Source of the DNA: Candidatus Cloacimonadales bacterium
GTDB taxonomy: Bacteria > Cloacimonadota > Cloacimonadia > Cloacimonadales > JAFGVF01
DNA length: 64,000 nucleotides
Assembly: GCA_963677495.2 (NCBI GenBank)
Contig: CAXXOU010000004.1
Coordinates: 608,001-672,000 of the forward strand
Direction of reading: 5' to 3'
Below are positions 353 to 56,990 of this stretch, one piece after another. Positions within the stretch are counted from its first letter, which is position 1, and each line of letters opens with the position of its first letter. Position numbers and translations under genes: made by a program. The notes below the pieces were generated by a model. That model worked only from the letters and a program-made list of their open reading frames with translations, was not told the origin of the DNA and searched no databases.

Positions 353-440
353 ACGAGAGGGTCACGAGAGGGTCACCTGTGGGAGACCTATGAAACACCT
401 TTCTTAGTCACGGGACCGGAAGGGATGATGAAGGGCAAAT
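353..440. repeat. 11-bp-period degenerate array P1
   Basis: acgagagggtc/acgagagggtc/acctgtgggag/acctatgaaac/acctttcttag/tcacgggaccg/gaagggatgat/gaagggcaaat. Confidence 0.65.
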
Positions 441-492
441 TTGAGTGCAAATTTGAGAAAATTGTTAGTGGAGAATTGTTAGCTGGAGTCAA

Positions 493-522
493 AGCGACCG
501 AATGGGAGTTGGACTCATAGCG
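493..522 (+). repeat. Dispersed intergenic module M6, copy 1
   Basis: agcgaccgaatgggagttggactcatagcg matches 53757-53786 agcgaccgaatgggagtcgggtcaatagcg without gaps. Confidence 0.8.
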
Positions 523-700
523 AAATATGGCAATATTCTACCTTTCGAATGTACTGTAGACCTTCGAAATGGTGCTCTTGTAAATTCTCCTCTAAGAGGA
601 GTGTTTCTCTTTATGAAATGGGGTTCTCGTAATATATCGTCTACTCCCTCAAATTGAACTATTCGCAAGGTCTGCGACCATTTTTGAAGGTATGGGTTTC

Positions 701-736
701 GTGACAAGACGCACCTACATAGTTGGTGCACTCCAT
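701..736 (+). repeat. Dispersed hairpin module M7, copy 1
   Basis: gtgacaagacgcacctacatagttggtgcactccata matches 53981-54016. Confidence 0.8.
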
Positions 737-738
737 AG

Positions 739-763
739 AAAAAGCCTGCATGTAGCAGGCTTT
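739..763 (-). terminator. Intrinsic terminator of satP
   Basis: aaaaagcctgc-atgta-gcaggcttt. Confidence 0.75.
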
Positions 764-783
764 AAACATATAAAACTAATAAC

Positions 784-1347
784 CTATTTAATCCAAGGTT
801 TTCCCATTGGCATAACAGTTTTACCAGCCAAGTCATTTGTGATAGTTGCAATCATCATATACATAGCTAGACCGGAGCAAACCATAAGTTCATAACCTGC
901 TACTACATTCCATATTGGGTTTCCAAAGTGTCCGAGAACAAGAAGAAGGAAACCAATGAAAAGTGTGAGGAATGTCAGAGCCATAGCTGTGTGAACTCTC
1001 CAAGAAGCTGTCCACATGATGAATGTATAGATCATCCATGCGAAAAGGTACCAGCCGACATCAGTAGTTGAAGATTCATAGATTCCGAAATGCTTCATAA
1101 GGAAGATGAGCCCAAGCCCAATCCAGAAACTTCCATAAGATACGAAAGCACTATAGCCGAAGTTGTTTCCCATTTTCTGTTCCTGGAAGCCAGCAATCAT
1201 TTGTGCTAAACCACCGAAGAAAAGTCCAAGTACTACTACTGGACCGATTCCACACCAACCCACATTATGAAACTGTAAAACCAACGTTGTTATTGAGAAT
1301 CCGGCGAGACCAACAACAGCCGGATTTGCATTCTTTCTTTCACTCAT
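784..1347 (-). CDS. satP: Acetate/succinate uptake transporter, GPR1/FUN34/YaaH (SatP) family
   Basis: N-terminal ANPAVVGLAGFSITT motif, GGLAQMIAG, GN.FG..AF.SYG.FW, six TM segments. Confidence 0.9.
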   Translation of the reverse strand: MSERKNANPAVVGLAGFSITTLVLQFHNVGWCGIGPVVVLGLFFGGLAQMIAGFQEQKMGNNFGYSAFVSYGSFWIGLGLIFLMKHFGIYESSTTDVGWYLFAWMIYTFIMWTASWRVHTAMALTFLTLFIGFLLLVLGHFGNPIWNVVAGYELMVCSGLAMYMMIATITNDLAGKTVMPMGKPWIK

Positions 1348-1561
1348 TCTATTACTCCTAAGTATATTAAATATTTAACTTGATTATGTAGTGAGGTTTA
1401 GGGACTTTCAGCAAGCAATTCTGTCAATTATAATCTCATCCTTTTTGTGTAGGGGTTGTTAAGGTAAATTCAAATTGACATAAACACCACCTCAGATATG
1501 TTGTTTTTCTCTATTAATGTGATTATAAATTTATAAATAAATATACGGGAGTGTGATAAGG

Positions 1562-2935
1562 ATGTGCGGAATACTCGGCATTTTTAATCATGATAAAGCA
1601 GCTGAATTAGCAGCTTTAGGAATGTTTGCAGAACAGCATCGTGGCCAAGAAAGCTGCGGTATGGCAGTGACAGATGGAAAAGGTTTCAAACTTAGAAAGA
1701 TGATGGGACTTGTTAAACAGGTTTTCCCACCGGAAGTATTAGCTGAACTACCTGGCAAGATTGCCGTTGGACATGTTAGATACCCTACTAAAGGCTCTGC
1801 AACTGCTTACAATTCACAACCGCACATTGTTGCGACTCTTTCAGGACCAGGATACTCTCTTGCTAGTAACGGTGATATAACAAACTATCGTTCTATTAGA
1901 CAAGAGCTTGAGAATAAAGGTGTTTATTTCAATAGTGAGAATGATGGAGAACTAATTCTTAAGTACATTATCTATGCTGTTGAGAAAGAACATCTCGCTA
2001 TTCCGGATGCAATCAAGAAGTTTATGGCAAATGTACAAGGTGCCTATTCTACTGTGCTTGCTACAAATAAAACAATGTATATGTTCCGTGACCCACATGC
2101 TATCAGACCTATGGTTTGGGGTAAAAGAGATGATGGAACTGTTGTAGTAGCTTCAGAAAGCTGTGCTTTAGATATACTTTGTGTTGATGACAGACAGGAG
2201 ATGAAACCGGGTGGTATCATCAAAGTAACATTCGACGGGATTGAAGTTATTGAGAATAACCCACAAGACTATCGTGTTAGTGAAGATGATAAGCATTGTA
2301 TCTTTGAACATATCTATTTCTCACGTCCTGATAGTCATCACTTTGGTGAAGACGTTTATGAAATCAGAGAAAGAATCGGTGCTAAGATGGCTCAATCAGA
2401 TGCTGATTTAAATCCTGATTGCGTTGTTCCTGTTCCCGACTCCTCAAACTTCATGGCTACCGGTTATGCAAAAGAGAAAGGTATTGAGTTTAACTTTGGC
2501 TTAATCAGAAACCATTATGTTGGAAGAACTTTCATTAAACCTGAACAGACAATTAGAGATGAAAGCGTTAGTCAGAAGTTCAACACACTTCCTAACTACT
2601 TTAAAGATAAGAAAGTGATTCTAGTGGATGACTCGATTGTGCGTGGTACTACTATCCGCAAGATTGTGACTATGCTTAGAAGAGCCGGAGCAAAAGAGAT
2701 TCATCTTAGAATCGGCTCACCACAGGTTAAGAACTCATGCTTCTACGGCATCGACACACCAACAAGTGAAGAGCTTATTGCTAATAGAAAGAGTCTTGAA
2801 GAGATCACTAAGCACTGTGGTGCTGATAGCTTGAAGCATATCCCAATTGAAGATTTAAGAGAATGTGTTACAGGACCAAACAACTATTGTTATGCCTGTT
2901 TCAATGGAGCCTATCCAATACCGATTGAGGACTAA
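1562..2935 (+). CDS. purF: Amidophosphoribosyltransferase
   Basis: MCGI start with N-terminal nucleophile Cys (ATG 1562), QHRGQES, GHVRY, PRPP-binding VDDSIVRGTT, CYACF Fe-S motif. Confidence 0.95.
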   Translation: MCGILGIFNHDKAAELAALGMFAEQHRGQESCGMAVTDGKGFKLRKMMGLVKQVFPPEVLAELPGKIAVGHVRYPTKGSATAYNSQPHIVATLSGPGYSLASNGDITNYRSIRQELENKGVYFNSENDGELILKYIIYAVEKEHLAIPDAIKKFMANVQGAYSTVLATNKTMYMFRDPHAIRPMVWGKRDDGTVVVASESCALDILCVDDRQEMKPGGIIKVTFDGIEVIENNPQDYRVSEDDKHCIFEHIYFSRPDSHHFGEDVYEIRERIGAKMAQSDADLNPDCVVPVPDSSNFMATGYAKEKGIEFNFGLIRNHYVGRTFIKPEQTIRDESVSQKFNTLPNYFKDKKVILVDDSIVRGTTIRKIVTMLRRAGAKEIHLRIGSPQVKNSCFYGIDTPTSEELIANRKSLEEITKHCGADSLKHIPIEDLRECVTGPNNYCYACFNGAYPIPIED

Positions 2936-2936
2936 T

Positions 2937-3923
2937 ATGAACAAAGTGAACTTGGAAAATACACTTCAAAACATGACCGGTAAACGTATTATCGTTGTAG
3001 GTGATGTTATGATTGATCATTATATTCATGGTAAAGTTAATCGAATCTCCCCGGAAGCACCGGTACCACTTCTTGATATGAAGAATGAAGAATATCGTTT
3101 AGGTGGAGCTGCTAATGTTGCTCTGAATATCAAGACTATGGGGAGTACACCTATCCTTATTGGTGTTTATGGAGAAGATGATGGTCAAATTATCATGAAT
3201 GATCTGTTAAACGCTGAAGATATCTGTTCAGGATACTTGGTTATTGATGAACAGCGTATGACAACGCTTAAGACAAGAATCGTTGCAGGCCAACAGCAGA
3301 TTGTTAGGATTGATAGAGAGCAGAGAAACGATATCAATACTGAAGTCGAATATAAAGTGATTTCCAAGTTCCAAGAGTGCATTACAGATTGTGATGCAGT
3401 TATCATAGAAGATTATAACAAGGGTTTATTGACTGAAAGCGTTATTAAAGCTGTTTTAGAGATAGCTAAGGAGAATAACAAGCCTGTCACTGTTGACCCT
3501 AAGTATAAAAACTTCTTTCTTTATAAAGATGCTACAGTTTTCAAACCAAACCTGGTTGAACTAAAAAATAATATGAACCTCACTGCGGGAACTGATGATG
3601 AGTTCCTGCAGGCCGGTTCTGAATTGCGAGAAAGACTAAACGCTGAGAATGTTATGGTTACTCGGGGAGAAAAAGGGCTCACTGTCTTTAAATCTGATAG
3701 CAGTACACACTCTATTCCCTCATATGCTAGAGATGTTTTTGATGTCTCCGGTGCCGGTGATACTGTTATTAGTTCATTGACCTTAGCGCTTGCAGGTGGT
3801 GCTACTATTGAGGTAGCTGCTGAGATAGCAAATTATGCTGCCGGTGTTGTTTGTGGTAAAATCGGAACTTCTTCTACTAAACCTTCTGAGATTCTGGAGT
3901 ATATAAGACGCTATGAACATTAA
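2937..3923 (+). CDS. hldA: D-glycero-beta-D-manno-heptose-7-phosphate kinase (RfaE domain I)
   Basis: GDVMIDHY, RISPEAPVP, GGAANVA, DVSGAGDT; ATG 2937 after GAGG. Confidence 0.92.
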   Translation: MNKVNLENTLQNMTGKRIIVVGDVMIDHYIHGKVNRISPEAPVPLLDMKNEEYRLGGAANVALNIKTMGSTPILIGVYGEDDGQIIMNDLLNAEDICSGYLVIDEQRMTTLKTRIVAGQQQIVRIDREQRNDINTEVEYKVISKFQECITDCDAVIIEDYNKGLLTESVIKAVLEIAKENNKPVTVDPKYKNFFLYKDATVFKPNLVELKNNMNLTAGTDDEFLQAGSELRERLNAENVMVTRGEKGLTVFKSDSSTHSIPSYARDVFDVSGAGDTVISSLTLALAGGATIEVAAEIANYAAGVVCGKIGTSSTKPSEILEYIRRYEH

Positions 3924-4389
3924 TCAGAAGATAATTCGCTTCAACGACATTGCTGAAGTCATTAGCAAAGAGAAAGAAGCAGGCAAGAAAGTTGTTTTTA
4001 CGAACGGTTGCTTTGATATTCTTCATAGAGGGCATGTTGCTTATCTGAATCAAGCTAGCGAGTTAGCAGATATTTTGGTAATAGGTTTAAACAGTGATGC
4101 GTCAGTAAAGCGTTTGAAAGGTGAGGAGCGACCAATCAATACAGAAATGGATAGAGCTTTCTTGCTCTCTGCAATGGGGTTTGTTAGTTATGTTGTTATA
4201 TTTGAAGAGGACACTCCTTTCAATCTTATTAAGCAGGTCATGCCTGACATCCTTGTTAAAGGTGGAGACTGGAAACCTGAGCAGATTGTAGGTTCAGATA
4301 TTGTCCTTGCAAATGGTGGAGAAGTGAAAAGCCTGCGTTTTGAAACAGGCTATTCATCAACAAATATTATTGATAAGATTAGGGATTAG
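3913..4389 (+). CDS. hldC: D-glycero-beta-D-manno-heptose 1-phosphate adenylyltransferase (RfaE domain II)
   Basis: FTNGCFDILHRGH, GLNSDASV, LVKGGD. Confidence 0.93.
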   Translation: MNINQKIIRFNDIAEVISKEKEAGKKVVFTNGCFDILHRGHVAYLNQASELADILVIGLNSDASVKRLKGEERPINTEMDRAFLLSAMGFVSYVVIFEEDTPFNLIKQVMPDILVKGGDWKPEQIVGSDIVLANGGEVKSLRFETGYSSTNIIDKIRD

Positions 4390-5280
4390 ACATTTAGGGC
4401 TTTACTTATTTTTTGATAGCCACTGAAAGCATTTATCTGTACGTCGAACACGTAGGATATGTTGAGCTAGCTATTTCCCTTTCGTAGAGGGGTGCCGTTT
4501 TAACAGTGAGGTGTTTATTCCTTCGAGGTCACCATTTGCAAGGTTTTCAACCATTCCAAAGGTACATATTATAGTGCTTCAACGGAGTTCTTCAGACTGA
4601 TAAGAACTTAAATCCTATGAACAGTTCCAGCTCTAAAGGAGCGATAGTTTAATAGCTCCATGTGACAACTTGACGCTTTGGGTTAAAGCCCTCAGACATT
4701 GTTTTAGCCCTGAATGGGCGTAAGAGTTCTAAAGTTTCAATCTTTCGCCCCTATAGGGTTGCAATCTTCTTTTATTACATTACCACATGCCCAAGCATGT
4801 GGCTATTGAACAGACGCCTCTTCAAGGCAAAAGAACGCTCTTCGAGCTTTGGGCAGGCAAGTTGCATGCCTTAAGTAGGACATGTTGCCAGCCTGTCCGC
4901 TTAGCACAGCTAAGCTTTTCCACTGACGTCAATTAGTATGAATTACTAAAGCTCTTTAGTATTTCCCGATAGGGAAACATAATATTAGCCATGGGGCCAC
5001 GAACCATGGACATGAAACAATAAATCCTCAATCCGATTAGGATTGCACTAATCCAATTTCCAAACAGTGGTATAATACGATCCATGTAGGATTGAAACAA
5101 TAAAATATCCAGCCCATGGGTCGGTTGCCCCATGGCTAGCATTATGCTTTCCTTCGGAAAGAGATTACAACTATATAGCTCCTTTGGACGAGAGCTACGT
5201 TTATCGTCCTTGCCCCACACTAACGTTGCGGTGCAAGTCCGAGGGTTGTAGTTAAGAAATTGTTACAAAATCAAAGATAT
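4390..5280. repeat. Intergenic island of REP-like hairpin modules
   Basis: Shares modules with 50790-51290: 87 bp 4875-4961 vs 50825-50911; 4837-4876 vs 50943-50983; 4473-4515 vs 51160-51233; agccctgaatgggc. Module M3 at 5204-5243. Confidence 0.8.
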
Positions 5281-5381
5281 TCATTGACAAACGGCTGTGA
5301 TTTCATAAGTTCTAAATCTCTTTTTTAGAAAATTGAGATTTTGTGATTATAGATGTAAAAAACATTGAATCAGGAGGAATA

Positions 5382-7112
5382 ATGGCAAGTCGTTCCACGT
5401 CTGAATATTACAAGGAACTGAGGGATGTATCACCTGTCAGAGCGATGGCAGAGACATTACTAAACAATTCTAATGTTCGTAAAGTAACTATAGCCGAGGC
5501 TTACGAAATGGGCAGAACTCAACCGGGAGTTTCTGAAACAGATTTAGAAATTTATCCACCGTTTGTTGAGAAAATGGGATTACCTAAGGGAGCCAAAGTA
5601 CTTAATGACTGTCACGGACAGATCATAGGTAGAACAGCAAAAGCTAGAAGATTCTTTAACAGATTAGAAGAACGAGAGCAACTCAAAGTAGGTAAAGATA
5701 TTAGAGAAGCTCTATGGCAGATGCAACATCAGAAGCTGATTAAAGCTGAAGCAGTATTGGGTCGTGATAAAGATCTGATGATTAAAGCAACGTATATTAC
5801 TACAGAATCCGATGCTGTTAATGTGTTTAACTGGCTAAGTAATTTTACCCCGTTTGAATTACTTGAAGATGAGTACAAGGATTCCAAGCCATTACCTATT
5901 CAAGACATAATAATTGTAGCTTTCAATGAGTGGACAATTGACGACAAATTCTACCACAATGTTGGAGCACCTCAGTTAGCTCTAGTTGACGAGAAACAGA
6001 ATGTTATCTTCAACTTCGGTATGAGATACTTCGGAGAAAGAAAGAAAGGTACTCTCACTCTTGCCTGGACATCCGGTATGCGTCTTGGCATGGCTGCTTG
6101 TCATGGTGGAATTAAAGAGATGGACTTCACAAAGTGTGAAGCTCCTGAGCATAAAGCCTTGGGCAAACGTTCAATAGCATTCTACGGCTTATCCGGTACA
6201 GGTAAATCCTCTCATACTAACAGCATTAATAATGGTAAGACATTACCTGAAGGTGTTACAAAAGTTGTACTTCATGATGATGCGTTCCAGATTGACCCGA
6301 TGGAGAGAATCTGTCGTGTTTGGGAACCTTCACTATTCGACAAAACCGATAGTAGAGAACCTGATCATCCGGATTGGAAGTATGTGCTCTCATTAATGAA
6401 TCATGCCCAGATTACAATAAACGGTAAGAACCTACCTGTTGGTCTTGACCTCAGAAACAGTAATGGTAGAGCATTGCTTGATCGTGATCTTCTTGGTGCT
6501 TGGGTTAACAGATGTTCATTCCCAAAAGCTCTTTGCTGGTTAATGAAAGATGCTATCCTTCCTCCAATAATGAAGTTTACAGATAAATATCTTGCAGTTG
6601 CAATGGGCGCAGCTCTTGCTACAATGCGTAACAGAGCTGAGAACGTTCGTGAAGAAGAATTAAACAAACTCGTTTTCGAACCGTTTGCAAATCCATTCCG
6701 TGTTTATGAGCTTTATAAAGATGTCGAAGCATTCCTTTCACTTATCGAAAGTGGTGCTGATGTTTACTGCTTCAATTCACGTGGTTACTGGAAGTCTTCA
6801 GATTCTAAACTTGAAGCTATTCCGCTTCAAACTTCTCTTACATTGCAAACAGGTATCTTAATGGATTCAATTGAATGGGAAGCCTGGGAAACATTACCTG
6901 GTGCGATGATTCCAACTAAAGAATCAATTGATAAGATTTTACCCGGTTATTATGAGAAGTATAATCCTTACAAACGTGAGCATTATAATGACTATCTTAC
7001 TTTCGTTGAAGAAAGATTCAGTCAAAGAAGAGAGTTCTTGGATACCTCTGATTTAAGAGAGAAACCAGCTCTTCTTCTCAAACTGTTAACTTCATTGAAC
7101 ATACACAGATAG
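5382..7112 (+). CDS. pckA: Phosphoenolpyruvate carboxykinase (ATP) family protein
   Basis: YFGERKKG, ACHGG, P-loop GLSGTGKS, LHDDAF, NGRA; ATG 5382 after AGGAGG. Confidence 0.85.
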   Translation: MASRSTSEYYKELRDVSPVRAMAETLLNNSNVRKVTIAEAYEMGRTQPGVSETDLEIYPPFVEKMGLPKGAKVLNDCHGQIIGRTAKARRFFNRLEEREQLKVGKDIREALWQMQHQKLIKAEAVLGRDKDLMIKATYITTESDAVNVFNWLSNFTPFELLEDEYKDSKPLPIQDIIIVAFNEWTIDDKFYHNVGAPQLALVDEKQNVIFNFGMRYFGERKKGTLTLAWTSGMRLGMAACHGGIKEMDFTKCEAPEHKALGKRSIAFYGLSGTGKSSHTNSINNGKTLPEGVTKVVLHDDAFQIDPMERICRVWEPSLFDKTDSREPDHPDWKYVLSLMNHAQITINGKNLPVGLDLRNSNGRALLDRDLLGAWVNRCSFPKALCWLMKDAILPPIMKFTDKYLAVAMGAALATMRNRAENVREEELNKLVFEPFANPFRVYELYKDVEAFLSLIESGADVYCFNSRGYWKSSDSKLEAIPLQTSLTLQTGILMDSIEWEAWETLPGAMIPTKESIDKILPGYYEKYNPYKREHYNDYLTFVEERFSQRREFLDTSDLREKPALLLKLLTSLNIHR

Positions 7113-7128
7113 ATAATTTAAACGATTG

Positions 7129-7155
7129 AAAGACCGGATTGTCCGGTCTTTTTTT
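7129..7155 (+). terminator. Intrinsic terminator
   Basis: aaagaccgga-ttg-tccggtcttt followed by a T tract. Confidence 0.8.
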
Positions 7156-7248
7156 CTGTTAACTCTCTGTTTAGTGATGTTTAATAGTGATAATATACTT
7201 TACAAAATAGAATAAATATATTTTTTAGACCAAATTTAGTCAAAAGGA

Positions 7249-9764: not shown

Positions 9765-9810
9765 ATTCTCTATTTTATCAACAGTTCTTTACAAAGACAA
9801 TAAATTTATC

Positions 9811-9980
9811 TACACAGCGTCTTTTGCAATAACTTAGCTACATCTCATGTCCTTTTTACTCTCTTTAACTGCTCTATCCATCAACGCACTGTGTTAGCAC
9901 TGTGCACGCACTGTGAAGGCACTGTCAACCCACTGTTTCACTGGGTGCACAGTGCGTGCACAGTGGGAAAACAGTGCGTT
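9811..9980 (+). repeat. ~170-bp element M1 (CACTGTG/CACAGTG 11-bp-period fold-back), copy 1
   Basis: Ungapped similarity to 36284-36453 and 56821-56990; perfect 18-bp inverted repeat 9898-9915 / 9948-9965. Confidence 0.92.
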
Positions 9981-10201
9981 AATAGGGTTTTGGTTGATAG
10001 ATTGATGCAAGAGAAAAGAAACACACTATTACGGGTATGGACTTGAATAATTCTTTATGTAAAAATGCACTAGTTTCTAAACTACATTAGTTTGTCTTCA
10101 TTCATAGCATAACAGAAATTGTTTAATTATTCTAGTAAATTGTGCTTGACACCATCAGCAAATCCATCCAAGACATTTCGGATATACTAAATAGGATAAT
10201 T

Positions 10202-17577: not shown

Positions 17578-17687
17578 CACGGGGATCTCTCGGGACTCTC
17601 ACGGGACTTACACGGGAGTCACGCGGGACTTTGCCCGAACAATCTCCGTCAAATTACCACTCAATACCCCAATAATTCCCGAGAGTT
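17578..17687. repeat. 11-bp-period fold-back array P2
   Basis: cacggggatct/ctcgggactct/cacgggactta/cacgggagtca/cgcgggacttt/gcccgaacaat/ctccgtcaaat/taccactcaat/accccaataat/tcccgagagtt; ctctcggga pairs with tcccgagag. Confidence 0.85.
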
Positions 17688-26276: not shown

Positions 26277-26364
26277 CTCCCCTGGGTTTCCCTTACCTCT
26301 CTCTTGAGTCTCTCTTGCAAAGGCTAGAGAAAGGCAACGGAGTGGCTAGGGAGAGGCAGGCGAG
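26277..26364. repeat. 11-bp-period array P3 (pyrimidine half, then purine half)
   Basis: ctcccctgggt/ttcccttacct/ctctcttgagt/ctctcttgcaa/aggctagagaa/aggcaacggag/tggctagggag/aggcaggcgag. Confidence 0.8.
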
Positions 26365-26460: not shown

Positions 26461-26556
26461 TTGGTGATATGTTGGCCAGATCTTGGCAATTAGGCCAGGA
26501 ATAGGCCAAGGGTTTACCAAGTGTTTACCAAGTGTTGCTCAAGAATTACTGCAGGG
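26461..26556. repeat. 11-bp-period fold-back array P4 (TTGG units, then CCAR units)
   Basis: ttggtgatatg/ttggccagatc/ttggcaat // taggccaggaa/taggccaaggg/tttaccaagtg/tttaccaagtg/ttgctcaagaa/ttactgcaggg. Confidence 0.8.
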
Positions 26557-36236: not shown

Positions 36237-36277
36237 TCTTTCTCGCGTCACGCTATCGCTGCAACGCAAGTCCGAAA
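36237..36277 (+). repeat. Dispersed hairpin module M3
   Basis: ttctcgcgtcacgctatcgctgcaacgcaagtccga resembles 5204-5243 and 54030-54070. Confidence 0.75.
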
Positions 36278-36283
36278 GAGACA

Positions 36284-36453
36284 TACACAGTGCCTTTTTC
36301 AATAACTTAGCTATATTTATTGCCCTTTGTACTCGCTTTTACTGCACTATCTATCAACGCACTGTGTCTGCACTGCGCACGCACTGTGAAGGCACTGCTA
36401 ACCCACTGTTTCACTGGGTGCACAGTGCGTGCACAGTGGGAAAACAGTGGGAA
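36284..36453 (+). repeat. Element M1, copy 2
   Basis: Ungapped match to 9811-9980 and 56821-56990. Confidence 0.92.
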
Positions 36454-36681
36454 GACTTCGATTTGGTAAAGAGCTTACTCAAAGTTTGCGATATCGCAAA
36501 AGAGATACAACTGTAAGATGACCCAGGAAGAAGTGATTCACAACGAAGTGGGAATCGCTAATTCCGATTACTCTAAGTCAGGCTGTCAATGGCAGTGAGA
36601 AATGGTACACGATGGCAGTGAAAAGTGGTACAAAACTGCCAACCTTTAAAAATGACTACTTCAAGACAGTTTGGAGTAGGT

Positions 36682-38157
36682 ATGATTGGAGTAGAAGTGT
36701 ATCATTCAATAAAAACTATGCATAAGCAAGGGCATAGTCAGCGTAAGATCGCAGAGGAGTTGTCTCTATCAAAGACAACAGTAGGTAAATACATAAATAT
36801 GACACTTGATGAGTTCATGGAACTAATAAACAATAGCATTCGTGAAAGCAGTTTTGCCATATGTGAGCAATATGTCCGCGAAAGGCTTAGCAAATATCCA
36901 CGATTAAGAGCTAGTGTACTATATTTAGAAGTTAAGAAAAAGTTCCCTGAGATAAAAGCAAAAGACAGAGCTTTCCGAGATTTTGTTCGTAAGCTAAAGC
37001 AGACTTATCCTGTCGATAAATACCGTAATTATGCAGTAATCGAGACGGCTCCCGGTGTTCAGGTTCAAGTTGATCCAGGTGAGATGAAAGTAGTTTTGGG
37101 TAATAAACGTCAAAGAGTTTATTTTATAGTTTTTGTGCTTTCCCACTCGCGTCAAAGCTATGTCCATTGGAGCACAACACCATATAACACATCAAGGTTT
37201 ATTGAAGCTCATCGTGAAGCTTTTATCTATTTTGAAGGTATCCCTTCAGAGTGTGTTTACGACCAGACAAAGCTTGTAGTAATACAGGAACGCTATCGGG
37301 AAGTAATCTTAAATAATCAGTTCCATCAGTTTGCAGCAAAAACGGGCTTTCATCCTCATGTATGCGAAGGCTATGATCCACAAAGCAAGGGTAAAGTAGA
37401 GCGTAATGTCTCAGAAGTAAAGCATGGCTTTATGTATGGCAAAGAGTTCAAAGACCTGGCAGACCTGCGTTCACGCGGACTTGAGTGGCTTTTACACTTT
37501 AACGGCAGAACCCATGGCACAACCCGTAAAGTACCATCAGAAGTATGGCAAGAAGAGAGGTTAAAGCTAAAAGATATTCCAGAGTTTATCTTCACTTTAG
37601 AAGTTCGTAATGCAGATAAAACAGGCTTAATCTCGTATGAGGGTAATAAGTACTCTGTTCCATTAGAGTATCAGCGAAAACAGGTATATGTGCAAAAAGA
37701 AAAGAGCACTTTAGTGGTGATGGATATTTATACAAGAAAGGAAATCTGCCAACATGAGCTATGCACAGAAAAAGGCAAAATCATCAAAAACACTAATCAT
37801 TATCGGGATTTTACGGTAGTGCTACAAGAGCTTATTGAGCGAGTAAAGGATGAGATGAGTGAATATATCCAAGGAGAAGAACTAATCCAGAGGCTTGTTA
37901 ATGATAACCCTAAAATAGCAAGGGATCAGTTGAGAGCCTTAAGCAAGTTTAAGCGTAACTATGAAACAGATGTATGGGAGTCAGTGCTTCCTGAGGTAAT
38001 GACTCTTTCGCATGTAAAGGCAACAGCCATAGAGAAGCTTCTGAATGCAAAAGTAAGACAAATGAAGCTAAATGAATTATCAGAATCAGAACCACAACAA
38101 GACTCAGAGAGTTCATTAATAGAGCGCTCATTAGATGACTACATGAAGGTGTTATAA
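36682..38157 (+). CDS. istA: IS21 transposase IstA
   Basis: N-terminal HTH, PG.Q.QVD, YDQ, PQSKGKVER (DDE); ATG 36682 after GGAG. Confidence 0.95.
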   Translation: MIGVEVYHSIKTMHKQGHSQRKIAEELSLSKTTVGKYINMTLDEFMELINNSIRESSFAICEQYVRERLSKYPRLRASVLYLEVKKKFPEIKAKDRAFRDFVRKLKQTYPVDKYRNYAVIETAPGVQVQVDPGEMKVVLGNKRQRVYFIVFVLSHSRQSYVHWSTTPYNTSRFIEAHREAFIYFEGIPSECVYDQTKLVVIQERYREVILNNQFHQFAAKTGFHPHVCEGYDPQSKGKVERNVSEVKHGFMYGKEFKDLADLRSRGLEWLLHFNGRTHGTTRKVPSEVWQEERLKLKDIPEFIFTLEVRNADKTGLISYEGNKYSVPLEYQRKQVYVQKEKSTLVVMDIYTRKEICQHELCTEKGKIIKNTNHYRDFTVVLQELIERVKDEMSEYIQGEELIQRLVNDNPKIARDQLRALSKFKRNYETDVWESVLPEVMTLSHVKATAIEKLLNAKVRQMKLNELSESEPQQDSESSLIERSLDDYMKVL

Positions 38158-38158
38158 G

Positions 38159-38890
38159 ATGATAGAGATAACTAAAACATACATCAAAAGGGCTCGTTGT
38201 ACTCATATTTTGAATACTCTTGAAAGTGCAGTTTTAGAAGCAGAGAAACAGAATATGACTTATCTGGAGTTCGTACATTATCTATTTGAAAAAGAGAACT
38301 CAGGAAGGAATCAAACCAATATCAACAGAAGACTTAAACAGGCTCACATCCCGGTAATAAAGACCTTTGATGAGTTCGACTATGCTTATCAACAAGTAAT
38401 AACCAAAAGACAAGTAAAGGAGTGGAAGAACTTTGTCTGGCTGGAGCAGAGGAGGAATATAATTTTAATGGGACCTCCGGGAGTAGGTAAGACTCATGTT
38501 GCAACAGCACTCAGTTATGAAGCAATAAAGGCAGGCTATAAGGTGGTGTTTTATAATCTGAACAACCTTATCGAAGAACTTGTACTAGCTGAAGCAGATA
38601 ACAACATAGATAAATATCTAAGCAATATAGCCAAGAATGATCTGATAGTTATAGATGAGATGGGGTATCTTCCTCTCCAGACAAAGGCAGCTAATCTGTT
38701 CTTTAGACTCATCCATCTCTTATACGAATTTAGATCAGTAATCATAACATCGAATAGGTTGTTTAATGAATGGGGAGCTATTTTTAACGACAATGTGATA
38801 GCAACTGCTATTCTTGATAGATTACTCCATCACTCACAACCAATTACAATGCTCGGAGATAGCTTTAGACTAAGGAATTTTCAAAAATGA
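38159..38890 (+). CDS. istB: IS21 helper ATPase IstB
   Basis: GPPGVGKTH, IDEMGY, ITSN, AILDRLLHH. Confidence 0.96.
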   Translation: MIEITKTYIKRARCTHILNTLESAVLEAEKQNMTYLEFVHYLFEKENSGRNQTNINRRLKQAHIPVIKTFDEFDYAYQQVITKRQVKEWKNFVWLEQRRNIILMGPPGVGKTHVATALSYEAIKAGYKVVFYNLNNLIEELVLAEADNNIDKYLSNIAKNDLIVIDEMGYLPLQTKAANLFFRLIHLLYEFRSVIITSNRLFNEWGAIFNDNVIATAILDRLLHHSQPITMLGDSFRLRNFQK

Positions 38891-49909: not shown

Positions 49910-49929
49910 AGCTTTTTATTCTCATAACG

Positions 49930-49960
49930 ACCGGACTATATTTATGTAGTCCGGTTTTCT
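49930..49960 (+). terminator. Intrinsic terminator
   Basis: accggactata-ttta-tgtagtccggt-tttct. Confidence 0.75.
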
Positions 49961-50109
49961 GTATAATAGCAAATAGGATATGCATTAAGTATCTGCTGAT
50001 GTGATTCAAAGTCGATATTGTTCCGTAAGGACAGAACAACTTGTGCCCTAGTTAGCTGATTATGGCTCCTGAAAATGCTTAATTAAACGTATGTTGTGGA
50101 TACACCTGA

Positions 50110-50133
50110 GGGCTTAAGATGTTAAGCCCCTAC
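50110..50133 (-). repeat. GTAG-type REP-like palindrome
   Basis: Reverse complement GTAGGGGCTTAACATCTTAAGCCC. Confidence 0.6.
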
Positions 50134-50398
50134 ATGTACTACGACTCTCCAGATCGGAAATTGCTACAGCTATTTCGCTCCCATTCCTCTGCTATAATTG
50201 CTATACATTAGATATCTTAATCTTATCAAATTCGAGTCTAAAACCTGTTAAAGAATAACTACATTTCAATAGGGTTTCAATAGGTGTCTCCTATCTGAGT
50301 GTTAAAGATTGTAACAGAGCAGTGACAGTTTCATGATGTTGAGATTCCCTTAAAAGTTTTCTCATTTTATTCTGACGGATCTCTGCAAAAAGTCAGAA

Positions 50399-50497
50399 AT
50401 CCACCCCTACTTTGCTCCCGCCCCTCTCGGGGCTCTCTCGGGGGTAGGCGGGGTAGGTCCCCGAGTGGTCCCGGAGAGGAGCAGGGGTGGATACTTC
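50399..50497. repeat. 11-bp-period fold-back array P6
   Basis: atccaccccta/ctttgctcccg/cccctctcggg/gctctctcggg/ggtaggcgggg/taggtccccga/gtggtcccgga/gaggagcaggg/gtggatacttc; terminal IR atccacccct...aggggtggat. Confidence 0.8.
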
Positions 50498-50570
50498 ACT
50501 TTCGGTTGACCTTGAGCAGACTTATTTCTGCCGATTTGCCCTTGAGCAATAAAAACAGAGCGGAAATATA

Positions 50571-50662
50571 TCACTCATAATCAGCTTACTAAATTCTCAC
50601 TTCTCAAGTGGGTATTATGTGAGTGTTGAGTGGGGATTGAGTGAGTGATGAGTGAGAATTGC
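50571..50662. repeat. 11-bp-period fold-back array P7 (CTCA / GTGAG)
   Basis: tcactcataat/cagcttactaa/attctcacttc // gtgggtattat/gtgagtgttga/gtggggattga/gtgagtgatga/gtgagaattgc; IR aattctcact...agtgagaatt. Confidence 0.8.
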
Positions 50663-50789
50663 TCATGGGCGTAACTTGGGAATAAAGAGAATATGCCACA
50701 GATTTCTCAGATTATAAAGACTTGAAAACTATGATTTGGTATAGATCAATTTACACACTTTTTAGAATACTCCCCAGATTATCTCAGAT

Positions 50790-51290
50790 ATATGTATTTC
50801 GACATCGACGGTGCACGTCGAAACGTAGGACACGCTGCTAGCTTGTCCGCTTAGCAGAGCTAAGCCCCGCCACTGAAGTTAATTAGTATGATTTACTGAA
50901 GCTCTTTAGTAATTATCTTCAGGTTCAGTCTCGTAAAATACAGCTCTGTCGAGCTGTGGGCAAGCAGGCTGCATGCCCTACGTGACAGCCCTGAATGGGC
51001 TGAATATGAATAGCCCCGGGTTTTATGAACCCGGGGTCAAGTATCTCAAAAAACATTTAGAACCCTGAAGGGGTTCAACGATTCCTTGACAAAGAAAATG
51101 ATGCTTCTTAAATAAAGACATAACCAAAGGGTAGACCTACGGGTTTGCCCTTTTTCCTAATTTCCCTTTTGGCCTATCGGGGCGAAGCCTTTGGCGAAGA
51201 CCGAAGGGGTGCCATTGTAAACGGCGGGGTGGTAAAGTAACCCCTCACCTTAATCCTCTCCCCAAAGGGGCGAGGAGACAAAATAAAGCA
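50790..51290. repeat. Intergenic island of REP-like hairpin modules
   Basis: GTAGGACA..TGTCC, GGGCA..TGCCCTAC, ccccgggtt..aacccgggg, agggtagacc..ggtttgccct; modules shared with 4390-5280. Confidence 0.8.
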
Positions 51291-51296
51291 GGTACT

Positions 51297-53720
51297 ATGC
51301 ATCGAGTAAACTTAGTATTATTAATACTTCTATCTTTCTCAGGTTTGACAGCGAATACTCATGAAGTCTCTTTAGATGGAACTCTACCTTACCTATCAAT
51401 CCAAGATGCAATTAATTCTTCTTCAAATAGTGATACGATTCTTGTGCATCCGGGTAGATACTTTGAGAACATAGATTTTGTTGGAAAGAGCATTACAGTT
51501 TGCAGTGAATATGTAAGTAACCCTAACTGGGATATTGTAGAATCTACCATTATTGATGGTAATGAGCAATCAAGCTGTGTAGTAGTAATTAATGGTGAGC
51601 TGAATGCAGTTCTAAATGGTTTCACAGTTACAAATGGGATTGGATATGGTAATTCAAGATATGGTGGAGGAGTTTATGTAAACTTTGATAGTAATCTAAA
51701 TCTTGAAAACTGCCTTGTTGAAGATAATCATGCTATCAATTGTGGTGGTGTATTGACAGGACAAAACAGTTTAACTTCAATAACTGGTTGTGTTATTAGG
51801 AATAACTCAAGTGTTTATATCGGTGGAGGTGTTGGAGTTTACACAGGTACTCTAAATTTAAGCCTAACCAATCTGAATAGAATTTACAATAATTATGGTG
51901 ATGTGCAAGATATTTTCATTTATAATTCTCAATCTACTAACATTGTTCTTGATACACTCAGTGTTAATCTTACTGAACCTGACGGTTTCTTTGTTTCCTA
52001 TTTTCATGAAGATGGATTACCTGCTCCAGAAATATCAGTTCAAAATAACTATTTCGATCAGTTTGATTCAGACCTATATGTATCACCAACCGGTGATGAC
52101 AGTAATAACGGTCTTACACCGGAAACACCATTACAAACAATTGCGTATGCTAACAGAATAATCCAGCCTGATAGTTTGAATCCTAATACTGTTTATCTAT
52201 TACCGGGAACATATAGTTCGGAGTTAAACAATCAGTTTTTCCCAATAGCTTTGCAATCTCATACAAAGATGTTGGGTGGTGGAGATTTACCTGATGAAGT
52301 TATTATTGGGAGCGTTGGAGAAGAGAGTAAAATAGGAATTTCAAATGCAACCAATGTTGAAGTCGGAAATTTTACTATCAGTCATGCTAATGAAAACGTT
52401 GAAGCTGTTTTACTTGTGAGTAGGAGTTGTAATGTATTTATTCATGATGTAGAATCTATCAATAATTACTCTGAATATCCAGGTTTACTAATTTTGTATA
52501 GTAATAACATAATTTTTAATAATATATCGATAAATAGTGTCGATCATGATTTACATAGGATATCTTGTATCAAAACATACGAGTGTGAAAATACGATTTT
52601 TAATAATACTATCATTAATAGTATTTCCAACATTATTGAAGATGGCTCTACTGTGTTAGTAAGATTCTCGAGGAGTAAAGTGTCCATAAATAACATGCTA
52701 ATAACAAATGTGATAATTGAAGATACTGGAGTTGTTTTTTCATATGGGAACTCTGTTGAAAGCAATGTAGTGGGTAATCTTGAACTATATAATTTCTTAG
52801 CATATAACAATACATCTTTGTCAAACTCAATGCCGATGTTTAACTTCTCTACCTACCATGAAGAGTGCTATATTAATAATATGACAATTGCTCATAATAC
52901 CGGACCGACAGCCATAACAAGATTCGGTGGGGATTATACTATAAGAAACAGTATCATATATAATCCTAACAGTGCATATGAGATGGGTGTATGGGTACCA
53001 GCTGATGGAGACCCAACACCTAATTGGTCGAATATTGATATTGACTATAGTCTTGTAAGAAATGGGTTAGCTTCTATACCTGGTGCAGATAATCCTAATA
53101 ATAATGTATTGTGGGGAGTAAATAATATTGATGTGAATCCATTGTTCCGAGGAGATATGGAAGGTGATATCCCTGTTGGAGACCCGAGATGGGTGCAACT
53201 GACAGAGAACTCACCATGCGTGAATGCAGGAACACCTGATACACTTGGTATGAACTTACCTTCCATAGATATTACAGGTAATCCTAGAGTATGGGACAAT
53301 ATTATTGATATGGGAGCACATGAGTATAACCCTACAGTTGATAATAGTTATGAAACAGCACCAACCCCACCTGCGACAATACAAGTATCTCATTTCCCTA
53401 ATCCGGTGACACCGAATGGCAGTAATGATAAGGTAGCATTTATTGAGTTCACACTTCCAAAGAAACCGATAGAAAAACCAACACTTGAGATATACAATAT
53501 CAAAGGTCAGAAGGTTAGGGATTTGAAGATAACTCAGAGTTTCTCACAGCTTGTTAGAAGTGCAGGCCTTTCCACTGAAGAGAAGCAGTCGGGTGAGAAG
53601 TATTCGCAAATGTGGGATTGTAGGGATAATAATCGGAAGACTGTGGCGACAGGGATCTACTTCTATAAGGTTAGTAGTGAGGGGGAAGAAGCAATAGGGA
53701 AGATGATGATTATGAAGTAG
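51297..53720 (+). CDS. Secreted beta-helix protein (DUF1565-like module) with FlgD/T9SS-like CTD
   Basis: Signal peptide, SIQDAIN...DTILVHPG.Y.ENI, YVSPTGDDSNNGL..ETP..TI..A, DMGAHEY, HFPNP...IYNIKGQ. Confidence 0.85.
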   Translation: MHRVNLVLLILLSFSGLTANTHEVSLDGTLPYLSIQDAINSSSNSDTILVHPGRYFENIDFVGKSITVCSEYVSNPNWDIVESTIIDGNEQSSCVVVINGELNAVLNGFTVTNGIGYGNSRYGGGVYVNFDSNLNLENCLVEDNHAINCGGVLTGQNSLTSITGCVIRNNSSVYIGGGVGVYTGTLNLSLTNLNRIYNNYGDVQDIFIYNSQSTNIVLDTLSVNLTEPDGFFVSYFHEDGLPAPEISVQNNYFDQFDSDLYVSPTGDDSNNGLTPETPLQTIAYANRIIQPDSLNPNTVYLLPGTYSSELNNQFFPIALQSHTKMLGGGDLPDEVIIGSVGEESKIGISNATNVEVGNFTISHANENVEAVLLVSRSCNVFIHDVESINNYSEYPGLLILYSNNIIFNNISINSVDHDLHRISCIKTYECENTIFNNTIINSISNIIEDGSTVLVRFSRSKVSINNMLITNVIIEDTGVVFSYGNSVESNVVGNLELYNFLAYNNTSLSNSMPMFNFSTYHEECYINNMTIAHNTGPTAITRFGGDYTIRNSIIYNPNSAYEMGVWVPADGDPTPNWSNIDIDYSLVRNGLASIPGADNPNNNVLWGVNNIDVNPLFRGDMEGDIPVGDPRWVQLTENSPCVNAGTPDTLGMNLPSIDITGNPRVWDNIIDMGAHEYNPTVDNSYETAPTPPATIQVSHFPNPVTPNGSNDKVAFIEFTLPKKPIEKPTLEIYNIKGQKVRDLKITQSFSQLVRSAGLSTEEKQSGEKYSQMWDCRDNNRKTVATGIYFYKVSSEGEEAIGKMMIMK

Positions 53721-54070
53721 CTTATAGCCTATAGCCTATAGTTAAGCTGTCACCATAGCGACCGAATGGGAGTCGGGTCAATAGCGGACATGTGGCATAA
53801 TTCATAACTATGAGTCCAACTTGTTTCAGATTTAGAAAAGAAGTCCGTTTTCGCTCGTAAACTTCGTTCTGACAAACTCCTTTTCTAAACCTGAAACTCG
53901 CTATGACTCCAATGATAAGGTGTGATTCGCTAATTCCGTCATTCGAAGCAGTTTTCGTTCTCGTGTAAGTCTGAAGTTGTGTGACAAGACAAACCTACAT
54001 AGTAGGTTAAATCCATAATATTGCATATTTCGTTCTCGCACCACACTTCGCTGCGGTGCAAGTCCGAAGG
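53718..54070. repeat. Intergenic island: 7-mer tandem, M6, long hairpin, M4, M7, M3
   Basis: tagctta/tagccta/tagccta 53718-53742; M6 53757-53786; gtttcagatttagaaaag...cttttctaaacctgaaac; M7 53981-54016; M3 54030-54070. Confidence 0.8.
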
Positions 54071-54401
54071 CTATATCTCGGGCGATTCCAAAAAATCAAT
54101 TCGTGTAACCACTTTTAGTCCAAAATGACAGTACTATATAATAGAGGATGTCAAAACAGAAGAGATCGTCATCCGGGTTTCTATTCACTTTACATGAAGA
54201 TGTGGTGGAATGTGCACAAAGATGGAGATGAAGAAATTCATCGCCTTCTTAATACTAGTTTCCCAAATCTCCATATAATGGATAAACCAAAGAAACTCTC
54301 TGCTCTCAAGCTCTCAACAACTAAAATCAGATAATATAAATTGACACATTGAATTGACATTATAATATCAACTGTTGTTGATTAGAGTTTGTGAGGAGTA
54401 G

Positions 54402-56648
54402 ATGAAAATGATAAAAAAGGGTTCCATTTTAGCTTTTATTGCAATTGCATTAATTGTTTGGATTGCTGATGCCTTAGTAGATTCTTTTATCTTTAATCTG
54501 GATATTCTACGTATGCTCTCATTCAATATTTCTACACCAGTTTTACTAAAACGACTTGTCTTGATAATTTTACTGAATATACTTAACTTATTAGCATCAA
54601 AGTTGCGTCTTCGCGTTGAACAAGCACAAATACTAAAAGAAACCCCCTTCGGAATCATAATCAGTAACCTGAAGAGTGAATTTCAATATTTTAATGACTA
54701 TTTTACCGAGTTAACCGGATACACACTCAATGACTTGAAAACAATCGATGACTGGTTCGAAATAGTGTATGATGATACAGATTATCGCAAGCAGATACGC
54801 CTATTGTGGAATAGAGATGTTCAAGCATTGATTAGTGGCGAGAAGAAATTTGTTTCTGCATGTGTCTTGTTTAAATGTAAAGATGGGAATAAAAAGAGTC
54901 TCAATATGTCAGCATCATATGTAGATAGTCGTTTAGTCATAACAACTGAAGATGTTACTGATCTGATTAATGCAAAAGAGAGCTTAGCTGAAAAAGAGAA
55001 TCAACTCCGTCAAATCATTGATACTATTCCGGCATTTATATATGTAAAAGATGCACAAAGGAATTTCCATATTCTAAATAACTCAGTTGCTGATTTTTGT
55101 GATGTGGGTATTGAAGATATTGTGAATAAACAAATTTCTAATGAACCGGTTGCTGCCAAAGATGCAGAACGCTTTTACGAAACTGACATGCAGATTATTA
55201 ACGGTGATAGTGATAAACTTGAATATTTCGAAACCATCAATATGAAAAATGGAGAGACTTTACATTTTAAAACTATCAAAGTACCCTTTTATATTAACAA
55301 AAGTACAGATCGATTTGCTCTTGGAATCTCTATGGATGTTTCTGAGCTTTTTGACAAAGAAACAGAGCTAAAAGAGACAAGTGCTCATCTTAAACGTGAG
55401 ATTGATGCCAGGAGTATTTCCGATAAGAAACTAACAGAAACTCAAGAAACATTGAAATATATCGTTGATTATAGTCACAATATCTTCTATTCAGTAAAAC
55501 CTGATATGACACTAAATTTCATGAGTAAGCAGATTGAAAGAGTGTTAGGATTTAGTAGAGATGAAGCATTAGTTAACATTAATCAGATTTTTGTAAATCC
55601 TATGGATTTTGATCTAGTAGTATCAAGCATTAAAAAAACTTTTAAGTCAGGTACTGAATTGCCTAATACAAAAGCTCAGATAAGAAAAAAGAGTAATGAA
55701 GTTATTTGGGCTGAAATCAAGCATACTCCAATAATTGAAAATGGAGATGTGATTGCTGTAATTGGAATTGTCACAGACGTTACTTTAAATATAACTGCTG
55801 AATCAGAGATTAAAGACTATCAGAATAACCTTGAGAATATTATTACAGAGAGAACTAAAGTTCTTAATGATAAGACCAAGAAACTTAGTGACTCTCAGAA
55901 AGCTTTAACATATCTTCTAGAAGATGTTAATGTTGCCCAAAGAGAGCTTATGCAATCTAATGATGCACTTAAATCTGCTAATAAAGAGCTCGAAGCTTTT
56001 TCGTATTCCATTTCACATGATCTAAGAACTCCATTGAGAGCTATTAATAGTTACACTAAACTTCTTGCAGATGAATATTCTCACCTGTTTGATGAGGAAG
56101 CCTTCAGACTGTTCAATATTATTAGAGAAAACTCTATTATGATGAGTAATCTAATTAATGATTTGTTAGCTTTTTCTAAACTTGGATTAGATAAAGTTGC
56201 CAAAAAGCAAGTGGATATGGAAAAGCTGTTGAGGCAGGAATTTGAGAATGCATTGAATTTCATTGATCGCGAAGTAAAACTTGAAGTTGGTATTATTCAT
56301 CCAATTGTTGGTGATGAACATCTACTTAAACAGGTTTGGGCGAATTTGTTAACAAATGCTATTAAATACAGTAAAAATTCTAATCCATCCATTGTTAGAG
56401 TTTCTTCTACTGAAGAAGGAGATAACATTAATTACTTTGTGACAGACAATGGAGTTGGTTTCGATGAACGTTACAAAGATAAGCTATTTGGTGTTTTCCA
56501 ACGTTTGCATTCGATGCATGAGTTTGAAGGAACCGGAGTAGGATTAGCAATAGTCCAGAGAATTATCGAAAAACACGATGGTTTTGTCGATGCTGAGTCT
56601 GATGGACAAAACGGAGCTACATTTAAGTTTTCTCTACCCAAAATATAG
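54402..56648 (+). CDS. Multi-PAS sensor histidine kinase
   Basis: Two TMs, three PAS-like domains, H-box SHDLRTPL, N-box NLLTNAIKY, DNGVG, GTGVGLA. Confidence 0.93.
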   Translation: MKMIKKGSILAFIAIALIVWIADALVDSFIFNLDILRMLSFNISTPVLLKRLVLIILLNILNLLASKLRLRVEQAQILKETPFGIIISNLKSEFQYFNDYFTELTGYTLNDLKTIDDWFEIVYDDTDYRKQIRLLWNRDVQALISGEKKFVSACVLFKCKDGNKKSLNMSASYVDSRLVITTEDVTDLINAKESLAEKENQLRQIIDTIPAFIYVKDAQRNFHILNNSVADFCDVGIEDIVNKQISNEPVAAKDAERFYETDMQIINGDSDKLEYFETINMKNGETLHFKTIKVPFYINKSTDRFALGISMDVSELFDKETELKETSAHLKREIDARSISDKKLTETQETLKYIVDYSHNIFYSVKPDMTLNFMSKQIERVLGFSRDEALVNINQIFVNPMDFDLVVSSIKKTFKSGTELPNTKAQIRKKSNEVIWAEIKHTPIIENGDVIAVIGIVTDVTLNITAESEIKDYQNNLENIITERTKVLNDKTKKLSDSQKALTYLLEDVNVAQRELMQSNDALKSANKELEAFSYSISHDLRTPLRAINSYTKLLADEYSHLFDEEAFRLFNIIRENSIMMSNLINDLLAFSKLGLDKVAKKQVDMEKLLRQEFENALNFIDREVKLEVGIIHPIVGDEHLLKQVWANLLTNAIKYSKNSNPSIVRVSSTEEGDNINYFVTDNGVGFDERYKDKLFGVFQRLHSMHEFEGTGVGLAIVQRIIEKHDGFVDAESDGQNGATFKFSLPKI

Positions 56649-56690
56649 ATATTACCAAGTTTACTCCTAGCATATAAGCTATTCAGTGGG

Positions 56691-56771
56691 ATTTGCAATA
56701 ACTTACTGCATTTCAGGGAGTTTGCCGGTCTGATAAGGCAACGGACTTCCTAAAGTGCACTCCGAAGTTGC
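56691..56771 (+). repeat. Module M2, copy 2
   Basis: Ungapped match to 36144-36224. Confidence 0.9.
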
Positions 56772-56820
56772 TATTCGCCCATCTCCCTTTGGTCGCTATA
56801 GCTCCAGCTTCCGATTTAGT

Positions 56821-56990
56821 TACACAGTGCCTTTTACAATAACTTAGCTATCTTTATTGCCCTTTTTACTCTCTTTTACTGCTCTATGCAGCAACGCGCT
56901 GTGTCTGCACTGTGCACCCACTGTGAAGGCACTGCCAACCCACTGTTTCACTGGGTGTACAGTGCGTGCACAGTGGGAAAACAGTGGGAT
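56821..56990 (+). repeat. Element M1, copy 3
   Basis: Ungapped match to 9811-9980 and 36284-36453. Confidence 0.92.

Follow-up and report, generated by a model that had tools for sequence, protein, structure and literature searches.

The DNA stretch analysed here, called the window, covers 64,000 nucleotides of a Candidatus Cloacimonadales genome (GenBank assembly GCA_963677495.2, contig CAXXOU010000004.1, positions 608,001 to 672,000). It corresponds to C4:608001-672000 of G000, the genome under study, which has 3.41 Mb and the contigs C1 to C4. Unannotated proteins encoded in the window fall into Candidatus Cloacimonadota clusters. The window contains seven intergenic arrays of degenerate words repeated every 11 base pairs (bp), one of them in three copies, and a remnant of a gene family encoding a protein of about 150 amino acid residues (150-aa family). 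The arrays had been noticed in an initial annotation made from the sequence alone, which described nine stretches of 90-110 bp with unrelated words and a common fold-back layout. All nine stretches were found in place between open reading frames (ORFs), and the arrays were confirmed as real. They are indeed distinct from each other, but they are not specific for their loci, as each is one of 3 to 67 dispersed copies of a family. The elements themselves measure 100-220 bp; their core is conserved, and their ends are ragged and scatter over tens of bases. The fold-back layout was frequent but not universal, the central flip of the core word being absent in 3 of the 8 families tested. When the window was compared with Rfam for an already described repeat family, none reached its gathering score.

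In the nine stretches, the identity at lag 11 was 0.49-0.65, compared with 0.11-0.39 at lags 9, 10, 12 and 13, and in 9/9 stretches it was not matched by any of 500 dinucleotide shuffles. Since these stretches had been pre-selected, the fair test is the genome-wide one. In all intergenic DNA, 4-mer matches per 1000 amounted to 18.6, 13.0 and 9.3 at lags 11, 22 and 33, respectively, and to 6.1-7.4 at lags 9, 10, 12 and 13. At lag 11, coding DNA gave 4.6 and shuffled intergenic DNA 5.4, with no peak. The excess at lags 11 and 22 that the initial annotation had expected was thus observed over the neighbouring lags and over both controls. Scanning G000 in windows detected 290 intergenic arrays at lag 11. 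The lags 8-10, 12 and 13 gave 1-10 arrays, and locally shuffled sequence gave 1-4. Another 49 intergenic arrays formed a class of their own with a lag of 7, and lag-8 and lag-9 arrays were seen in G014 and in genomes of the family f4, some of them upstream of the same 150-aa gene family.

The period is exactly 11 and not 10.5, with spacings of 10 or 12 outside the five commonest spacings for 8/8 core words. A strict 11 fits better with a spacing set by a protein or with unit duplication than with the twist of relaxed B-DNA. Insertions and deletions among the copies peaked at length 11 (31, versus 4-12 for lengths 7-10, 12 and 13). This gain and loss of units indicates that slippage maintains the period, although the origin of the period is not thereby explained.

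The 290 arrays clustered into families of 60, 39, 37, 33, 23, 22, 21, 10, 6, 4, 4, 2, 2, 2 and 2 members. Beyond these approximately 15 multi-copy families there were 23 singleton arrays, some of which are probably noise. The core of the M1 array was also found at high copy number in contigs of four runs of one sample, possibly the source sample itself. For the dispersal of the arrays, orthologous gene gaps were compared between G000 and its congener G001, of which a sample of 1.2 Mb (39% of the genome) was used. Among 405 gaps, an array was present in one genome only in 7 cases and in both genomes in none, and two of the seven represent clean insertions with a length of about 150-210 bp. Positions of the dispersed copies are specific to the lineage, and their insertion sites are empty in the congener. 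The outer flanks of 6/6 families had no copy-specific direct or inverted match, and the flank comparison was negative for flank complementarity and target duplication. One filled/empty pair hinted, by eye, at a degenerate duplication of about 27 bp.

As the initial annotation had proposed, the neighbours of all arrays were clustered in search of a cognate protein. This led to the 150-aa gene family, which is unannotated and has 22 intact paralogues in G000. In the phylum, the family was detected in 96 of 151 sampled genomes with 1-25 matches each, and it has 360 representatives at 50% identity. An array was located within 1.3 kb upstream in 14 of the 22 intact paralogues and downstream in 0/22. 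The upstream arrays represented 11 distinct families compared with 6.9 expected (P 0.022). An array upstream of a paralogue is called a home array here. For 12 of the 15 multi-copy joint families present in G000, an intact paralogue with a home array was found in G000 or G001, and one more family has its home at a remnant. Home arrays were kept in 3/3 array-bearing orthologue pairs of at least 80% identity, in contrast to 0/7 ordinary array-bearing gaps (P 0.008).

Among the seven arrays of the window, four have a clear home in G000 (P1, M1, P2 and P4), P3 has a related home, P6 a remnant and P7 only a related home in G001 (Table 1). The matches of P3 to the regions upstream of C4:1070940 and C3:297206 were weak (35-42 bits). 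P7 clustered with arrays of G001, one lying upstream of L025 and one upstream of a remnant, and the copy search gave no direct match of P7 to any upstream region of a paralogue.

Table 1. Arrays and gene remnant in the window. Positions are those of the window; copies are those matched for each array; a dot marks an unassigned strand.
Feature	Family	Words	Copies	Position	Core	Strand	Home or remark
P1 array	F4		28	353..440		- (home orientation towards gene)	upstream of paralogues G000 C2:33661 and C3:24324; element reaches over the TTATCCACA/TGTGGATAA palindrome at ~319-339
M1 element	F0	CACTG	67	9804..10019	9886-9980	+	upstream of G000 C4:1447755 and its G001 orthologue (L022)
P2 array	F6	CGGGA	20	17578..17687		+	upstream of G000 C4:23771
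P3 array	F13		6	26277..26364		.	kin of CCCTTG/CAAGGG arrays upstream of two paralogues
P4 array	F1	CTTGG/CCAAG	39	26461..26556		-	upstream of C4:946147, C4:1498355 and G001 L020
M1 copy no. 2	F0			36277..36492	36359-36452	+	
P6 array	F10		7	50399..50497		.	sole home directly before 5'-truncated paralogue C4:469557
P7 array	F14		3	50571..50662		.	none in G000
Remnant of 150-aa gene family				54110..54283		+	TATATAATAGAGG upstream motif of the family fused to internal gene piece
M1 copy no. 3	F0			56814..57029	56898-56990	+	

The two F4 genes C2:33661 and C3:24324 share 364 bp of upstream sequence at 95% from the array on, and they diverge right after the stop codon. Many dispersed F4 copies begin near the start point of this shared unit. 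This is the one case found in which array, leader and gene were duplicated together almost without change, with the stop codon as the end of the duplicated part.

In the cross-genome tests, four congeneric genomes (G000-G003) were used, of which the G003 assembly is 72% complete, and kin are not independent in any of the counts. In these genomes the array word follows the protein tree. F1 precedes three related genes, at distances of 260-960 bp. F0 precedes the members of an orthologue pair, F4 a pair of near-identical genes and F3/F36 a clade of four genes, and the agreement between clade and array was likewise observed in G002 and G003. Most of the orthologous 150-aa genes are non-syntenic between G000 and G001. 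Across the upstream regions, 31/82 of which have an array, the correlation of protein identity with word match was weak but significant (Mantel rho 0.19, P 0.0008). The mean word match was 5.8/11 below 30% protein identity and reached 8-9/11 above 60%.

The abundance of the arrays was then compared between genomes with and without the matching paralogue, and a family was mostly abundant where its paralogue occurs. F4 and F2, which have no paralogue of theirs in G001, gave 0 matches in the whole of G001 compared with 28 and 37 in G000, and the P6 family, with its paralogue also missing there, gave 0 as well. F1, with the gene in both genomes, had 39 matches in G000 and 4 in G001, and F0 had 18 in the sample of G001, where its gene is present. 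Predictions in the reverse direction were borne out as well. The L024 array was matched 28 and 9 times in the gene carriers G001 and G003, and 2 times in G000 and once in G002. The L116 array was found 12 and 17 times in G002 and G003, where the gene clade is present, and 1 and 0 times elsewhere. For the L115 array, the predicted full-length copies were observed in G000 and G002, while those in G001 were partial only. Beyond this group, in genomes of other families (G013, G014 and G025), paralogues are preceded at 80-365 bp by arrays with differing words. The L032 word occurred at 36 loci in G013 and at none in 4 other genomes, and the home word of G025 had 6 strict matches genome-wide. Samples of 120-140 kb contained 5 arrays in G013 and 6 in G014, 7/11 of them matching a home of their own genome, and 0 arrays in G024 and G031, which both lack the gene, and in G004 and G027. 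In family f4, a second score gave values of at least 4 for 7/19 genes versus 6/67 control gaps (length-matched P 0.003).

Further features of the home loci were recorded. A gene-private leader motif, roughly TTTTTCAC-N12-TTTTTCAC-ATATAATAGTAGAGG (for example in L009, L010, L035 and L052), recurs across the order and is not dispersed. The upstream motif TATA..AGAGG is also not dispersed, since its 5 best genomic hits were all at family genes; the pattern caught 18/82 leaders only. The TTATCCACA..TGTGGATAA palindrome, which we take to be DnaA-box-like, follows the array in one home clade and in its dispersed copies (F3, F4, F7 and L116-type; window 319-339). Remnants at window 54110-54283, at C4:469557 and at G001 L076:2493 have the upstream motif or array fused to, or left before, an internal gene piece, and they look as if they were products of internal deletions. 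The piece in the window corresponds to about residues 80-122 and is 56% identical to C4:782536, a member of an array-less clade. Paralogues also occurred in back-to-back pairs that are separated by 4-8 kb and enclose variable genes (C1:774894/781894, C3:291415/297206 and C4:777579/782536). Otherwise, clustering of the neighbours, which were not annotated singly, showed no recurrent neighbour family at the 22 loci of G000. Longer members of 171-211 residues occur in G027, which has 23-25 copies, and in G021 (loci L051-L054 and L132-L134). No 11-bp arrays were present in their leaders examined or in the 120-kb sample.

Mobile elements of other types were mapped as well. An element that we read as IS3-like from its ORF and ends has six copies in G000 (C2:142625, C2:235206, C2:359505, C3:93495, C4:221018 and C4:1237849). 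In all of them an F1 (P4-type) array, oriented the same way each time, is found no more than about 40 bp from the left end. Duplications of 3 bp were seen by eye in three copies, as for a target-selecting insertion sequence (IS). The 6/6 association points to recognition of the array structure in vivo. An IS21-family element (istA/istB) occupies window 36583-38890, about 130 bp after the second M1 copy. It is one of 16 copies, several others of which are also in or beside repeats. Repeats that we take to be of the GTAG type and similar to repetitive extragenic palindromic (REP) sequences lie at window 4875-4964, 50825-50914, 696-737 and 53976-54017 and are distinct from the 11-bp arrays. Matches to Y1 transposases were found at 14 loci of G000 other than the 150-aa genes, and two of these loci adjoin family genes. 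Only 5/14 loci had an array within 1.3 kb, with no consistent family. The REP-associated tyrosine transposase (RAYT) was therefore rejected as the array partner.

The 150-aa protein is basic, with a median isoelectric point of 9.0 and a net charge of +6 in the first 60 residues. The residues K2, G14, R33 and Y72 are conserved at 93-98%. An AlphaFold2 model with a predicted local distance difference test score of 95.9 consists of a small N-terminal sheet followed by the long helices 42-60, 63-79 and 89-103. No Pfam or PHROGs family was matched by more than 1 of 140 members. Among these 140 members Pfam gave no match to Y1_Tnp (PF01797) or to resolvase families, and an HUH motif or a conserved His pair was not seen in the family. 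A sequence search of the PDB gave no match below E 0.1, and a search of phages and viral contigs with one paralogue gave no relative. Confident fold matches were absent in the PDB by Foldseek, in BFVD, in the VIA-wide search (best Z 3.9) and in a second look at VIA (best Z 3.3). The fold searches covered residues 39-141, and a missing match is no proof of a new fold. Ribbon-helix-helix proteins appeared with Z 2.8-3.8 for the helices 42-107 only, which is within the range of a common arrangement, and the N-domain of TraM was aligned over 49 residues with Z 3.8 and a root-mean-square deviation of 2.5. These modelled similarities are only a hint. The N-terminal part may resemble DUF6266 (PF19781), and one Atlas row at 0.84 had 11% DUF6266. 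The family was matched in 0/41 genomes and 0/14 controls, so that a positive control was lacking. Helices 2-3 may have an HMG-box-like spacing, for which one weak Pfam row was obtained (1/140, E 0.006) and on which we do not rely, and the N-terminal sheet may be similar to integrase arm-binding domains.

Taken together, the results are best explained by about fifteen non-coding repeat families, most of which have their home upstream of their own 150-aa paralogue, whose protein probably binds its own word and would thereby drive or license its spread. The two alternatives of the initial annotation, binding arrays each read by a different paralogous protein and footprints of non-autonomous mobile elements, then look like two sides of one system. 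For the first, paralogues with differing upstream arrays were found, which would fit such binding. For the second, the dispersed insertions are lineage-specific and their sites empty in G001, which is consistent with mobilisation. Cognate binding, with or without mobility, is likely. A spread driven by the cognate protein is favoured with less certainty, and catalysis by the protein itself is a tentative suggestion.

Several results weigh against a cognate-driven spread. In G000, the presence of an upstream array was not enriched, with 11/22 paralogues compared with 230/487 long-gap genes and a length-matched P of 0.26, although the long-gap control is itself confounded because arrays lengthen gaps. 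The test for family diversity gave P 0.075 when it was conditioned on having an array. For F5 (22 copies) and F11, neither G000 nor the loci fetched from G001 contained a home. F6, with 7 copies in the 1.2-Mb G001 sample, had none among 11 of the 12-13 matching G001 genes. In the incomplete G003 assembly, F3 and F0 were abundant with no cognate among 3 of the 4 matches, and many copies of the L115 array were present there whose cognate was not found. The first score used for family f4 was significant at 1/4 threshold settings (P 0.037, 0.20, 0.35 and 0.48). The second score was devised after it and also gives values of at least 4 in 3/12 downstream gaps. No such array accompanies the gene in 8/9 members of one clade, in the 7 genes fetched from the genera g2 and g3 and in the 5 genes fetched from G027, so the protein exists without arrays. 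Finally, no known catalytic motif was seen in the protein, and neither terminal repeats nor target duplications could be defined.

One alternative holds that the paralogues bind their words without moving them. They would be nucleoid-organising or regulatory proteins, with an operator copied by general recombination and selected as chromosomal docking sites. A promoter-like TTGACA-17-TAnAAT sequence often abuts the home arrays by eye, and many of the weak fold matches were ribbon-helix-helix regulators. The F0 copies face a gene start in 47/60 cases (P 0.0004). This orientation bias was absent in the other families (94/162, P 0.42), and 57/290 arrays lie between converging genes, which shows that the arrays are not generally promoter elements. 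The genes neighbouring the arrays had no common function, and array positions were common to the congeners in 0/7 cases. We consider this alternative unlikely.

A second alternative is that the arrays hitch-hike in a hot spot. Another enzyme, a RAYT or transposase, would spread them into long, repeat-rich leaders, where they are inherited with genes whose protein does not read them. The lack of a length-matched enrichment in G000 agrees with this, as do the 7-mer arrays, REP-like palindromes and long tandem repeats that the leaders also contain, the Y1 transposase matches mentioned above and the occurrence of 2-3 arrays in 34/250 array-bearing gaps. Hitch-hiking does not predict, however, that array abundance tracks the presence of the matching paralogue, that arrays are retained at the genes but not elsewhere, or that arrays are missing from samples of gene-less genomes. 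The Y1 loci were not consistently associated with arrays. The compensatory pairing that is typical of REPINs according to the accessible text of PMC3116915 is rare here. Such a passive spread thus appears rather improbable.

That the arrays act as hairpin RNAs or single-stranded hairpins, with the 11-nucleotide beat as a turn of the A-form, is highly improbable: 5/6 families fold well below shuffles (about -30 to -38 versus -17 to -21 kcal/mol), but F3 folds as shuffled sequence does, the flip is not universal, chimeras built from two copies fold as well as own copies do, and compensatory changes are rare (7 versus 122 single breaks in F0 and 3 versus 99 in F2). Given the rare compensation and the chimeras, reading of the words in the DNA duplex seems more probable than a hairpin under conservation.

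If the spread is driven by the cognate protein, each paralogue would bind its own words, spaced by 11 bp, on double-stranded DNA. Binding may be cooperative with one subunit per 11 bp, by analogy with ParR on R1 parC. The home array would serve as the operator and would form the cis end of a unit in which array, leader and gene move together, and the dispersed copies would be gene-less derivatives of its 5' end. The bound protein would then drive or license the copying of the array to new intergenic sites. The chemistry is the least certain step. It could be performed by the protein itself, with the invariant Tyr72 as the sole candidate nucleophile, or by a recruited host recombinase or transposase. 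Possibly, though with considerable doubt, this represents a new class of bacterial mobile DNA. A 150-residue protein with an unmatched fold and without known transposase motifs would read a private word at 11-bp intervals, mobilise the unit of array, leader and gene, and give rise to tens of array copies that lack the gene. In that case up to 25 diverged gene-word pairs would coexist in one Cloacimonadota genome. A protein that moves DNA would be a very small new recombinase, and one that only binds would be a new sequence-specific scaffold with many natural specificities. With the 31 gene-word pairs extracted, the specificity is directly testable, as to which paralogue reads which word and with which residues. 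A description of these elements was not found in the literature covered, which mostly excludes subscription journals and does not include supplements.

Among known systems, the REP/REPIN sequences with their RAYT (Y1 HUH) transposases are dispersed extragenic repeat families, each with a copy beside its own divergent paralogue (PMC3116915 and the RAREFAN preprint, bioRxiv 10.1101/2022.05.22.493013, in the parts available). The arrays resemble them in having several dispersed extragenic families per genome, each with a copy by its own paralogue of one gene family, in the fast turnover of lineage-specific positions and in being targeted by an IS, here the IS3-like element at the F1 arrays. Such targeting has reportedly been found for REP elements. 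In contrast, no Y1/HUH transposase is encoded by the partner gene here, words in strict 11-bp succession take the place of REP doublets, and pairing is not kept by compensatory change. Moreover, the array is upstream only, the genes themselves move and duplicate, and classical GTAG-type REPs with RAYTs exist separately in the same genome. As the defining enzyme and the compensated hairpin are absent, the arrays are not a member of REPIN/RAYT. The gene-repeat pairing would be an independent case beside this textbook example, built on an unstudied protein family. If it is indeed a new class of mobile DNA, it would have arrived at the same lifestyle by a second, unrelated solution and would amount to a natural code that sets protein variants against DNA words.

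Miniature inverted-repeat transposable elements are characterised by sharp ends, terminal inverted repeats and target duplications; the arrays have scattered ends and unmatched flanks, next to the hint of a duplication in one filled/empty pair. A precedent for phased motifs at a transposon end, by analogy and without protein homology, is found in the IS607 family, where the ends of IS1535 carry helically phased 9-bp motifs bound by TnpA (PMC6188088, available text). Phased motifs at one end of a mobile unit, a putative one in the case of the arrays, are common to both, as is the apparent lack of terminal inverted repeats and target duplication. The protein studied here, however, has no serine-recombinase match, there is no tnpB, and the arrays spread without the gene.

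The parC site of plasmid R1 consists of 11-bp direct repeats bound by the ribbon-helix-helix protein ParR, and the plasmids of Clostridium perfringens have cognate families of this kind (PMC9426499, as far as its text was accessible). The home arrays are similar as 11-bp direct repeats upstream of a gene for a small basic protein, and in the pairing of each paralogue with its own repeats. They differ in that a parM/parA partner was not seen among the clustered neighbours, that they are chromosomal, dispersed in tens of copies and often with an inverted half, and that the ribbon-helix-helix fold appeared only in weak matches of Z 3.8 at most. The best reading is a gene-repeat pairing like that of REPIN/RAYT, with a new DNA-binding protein on phased words like those of parC.

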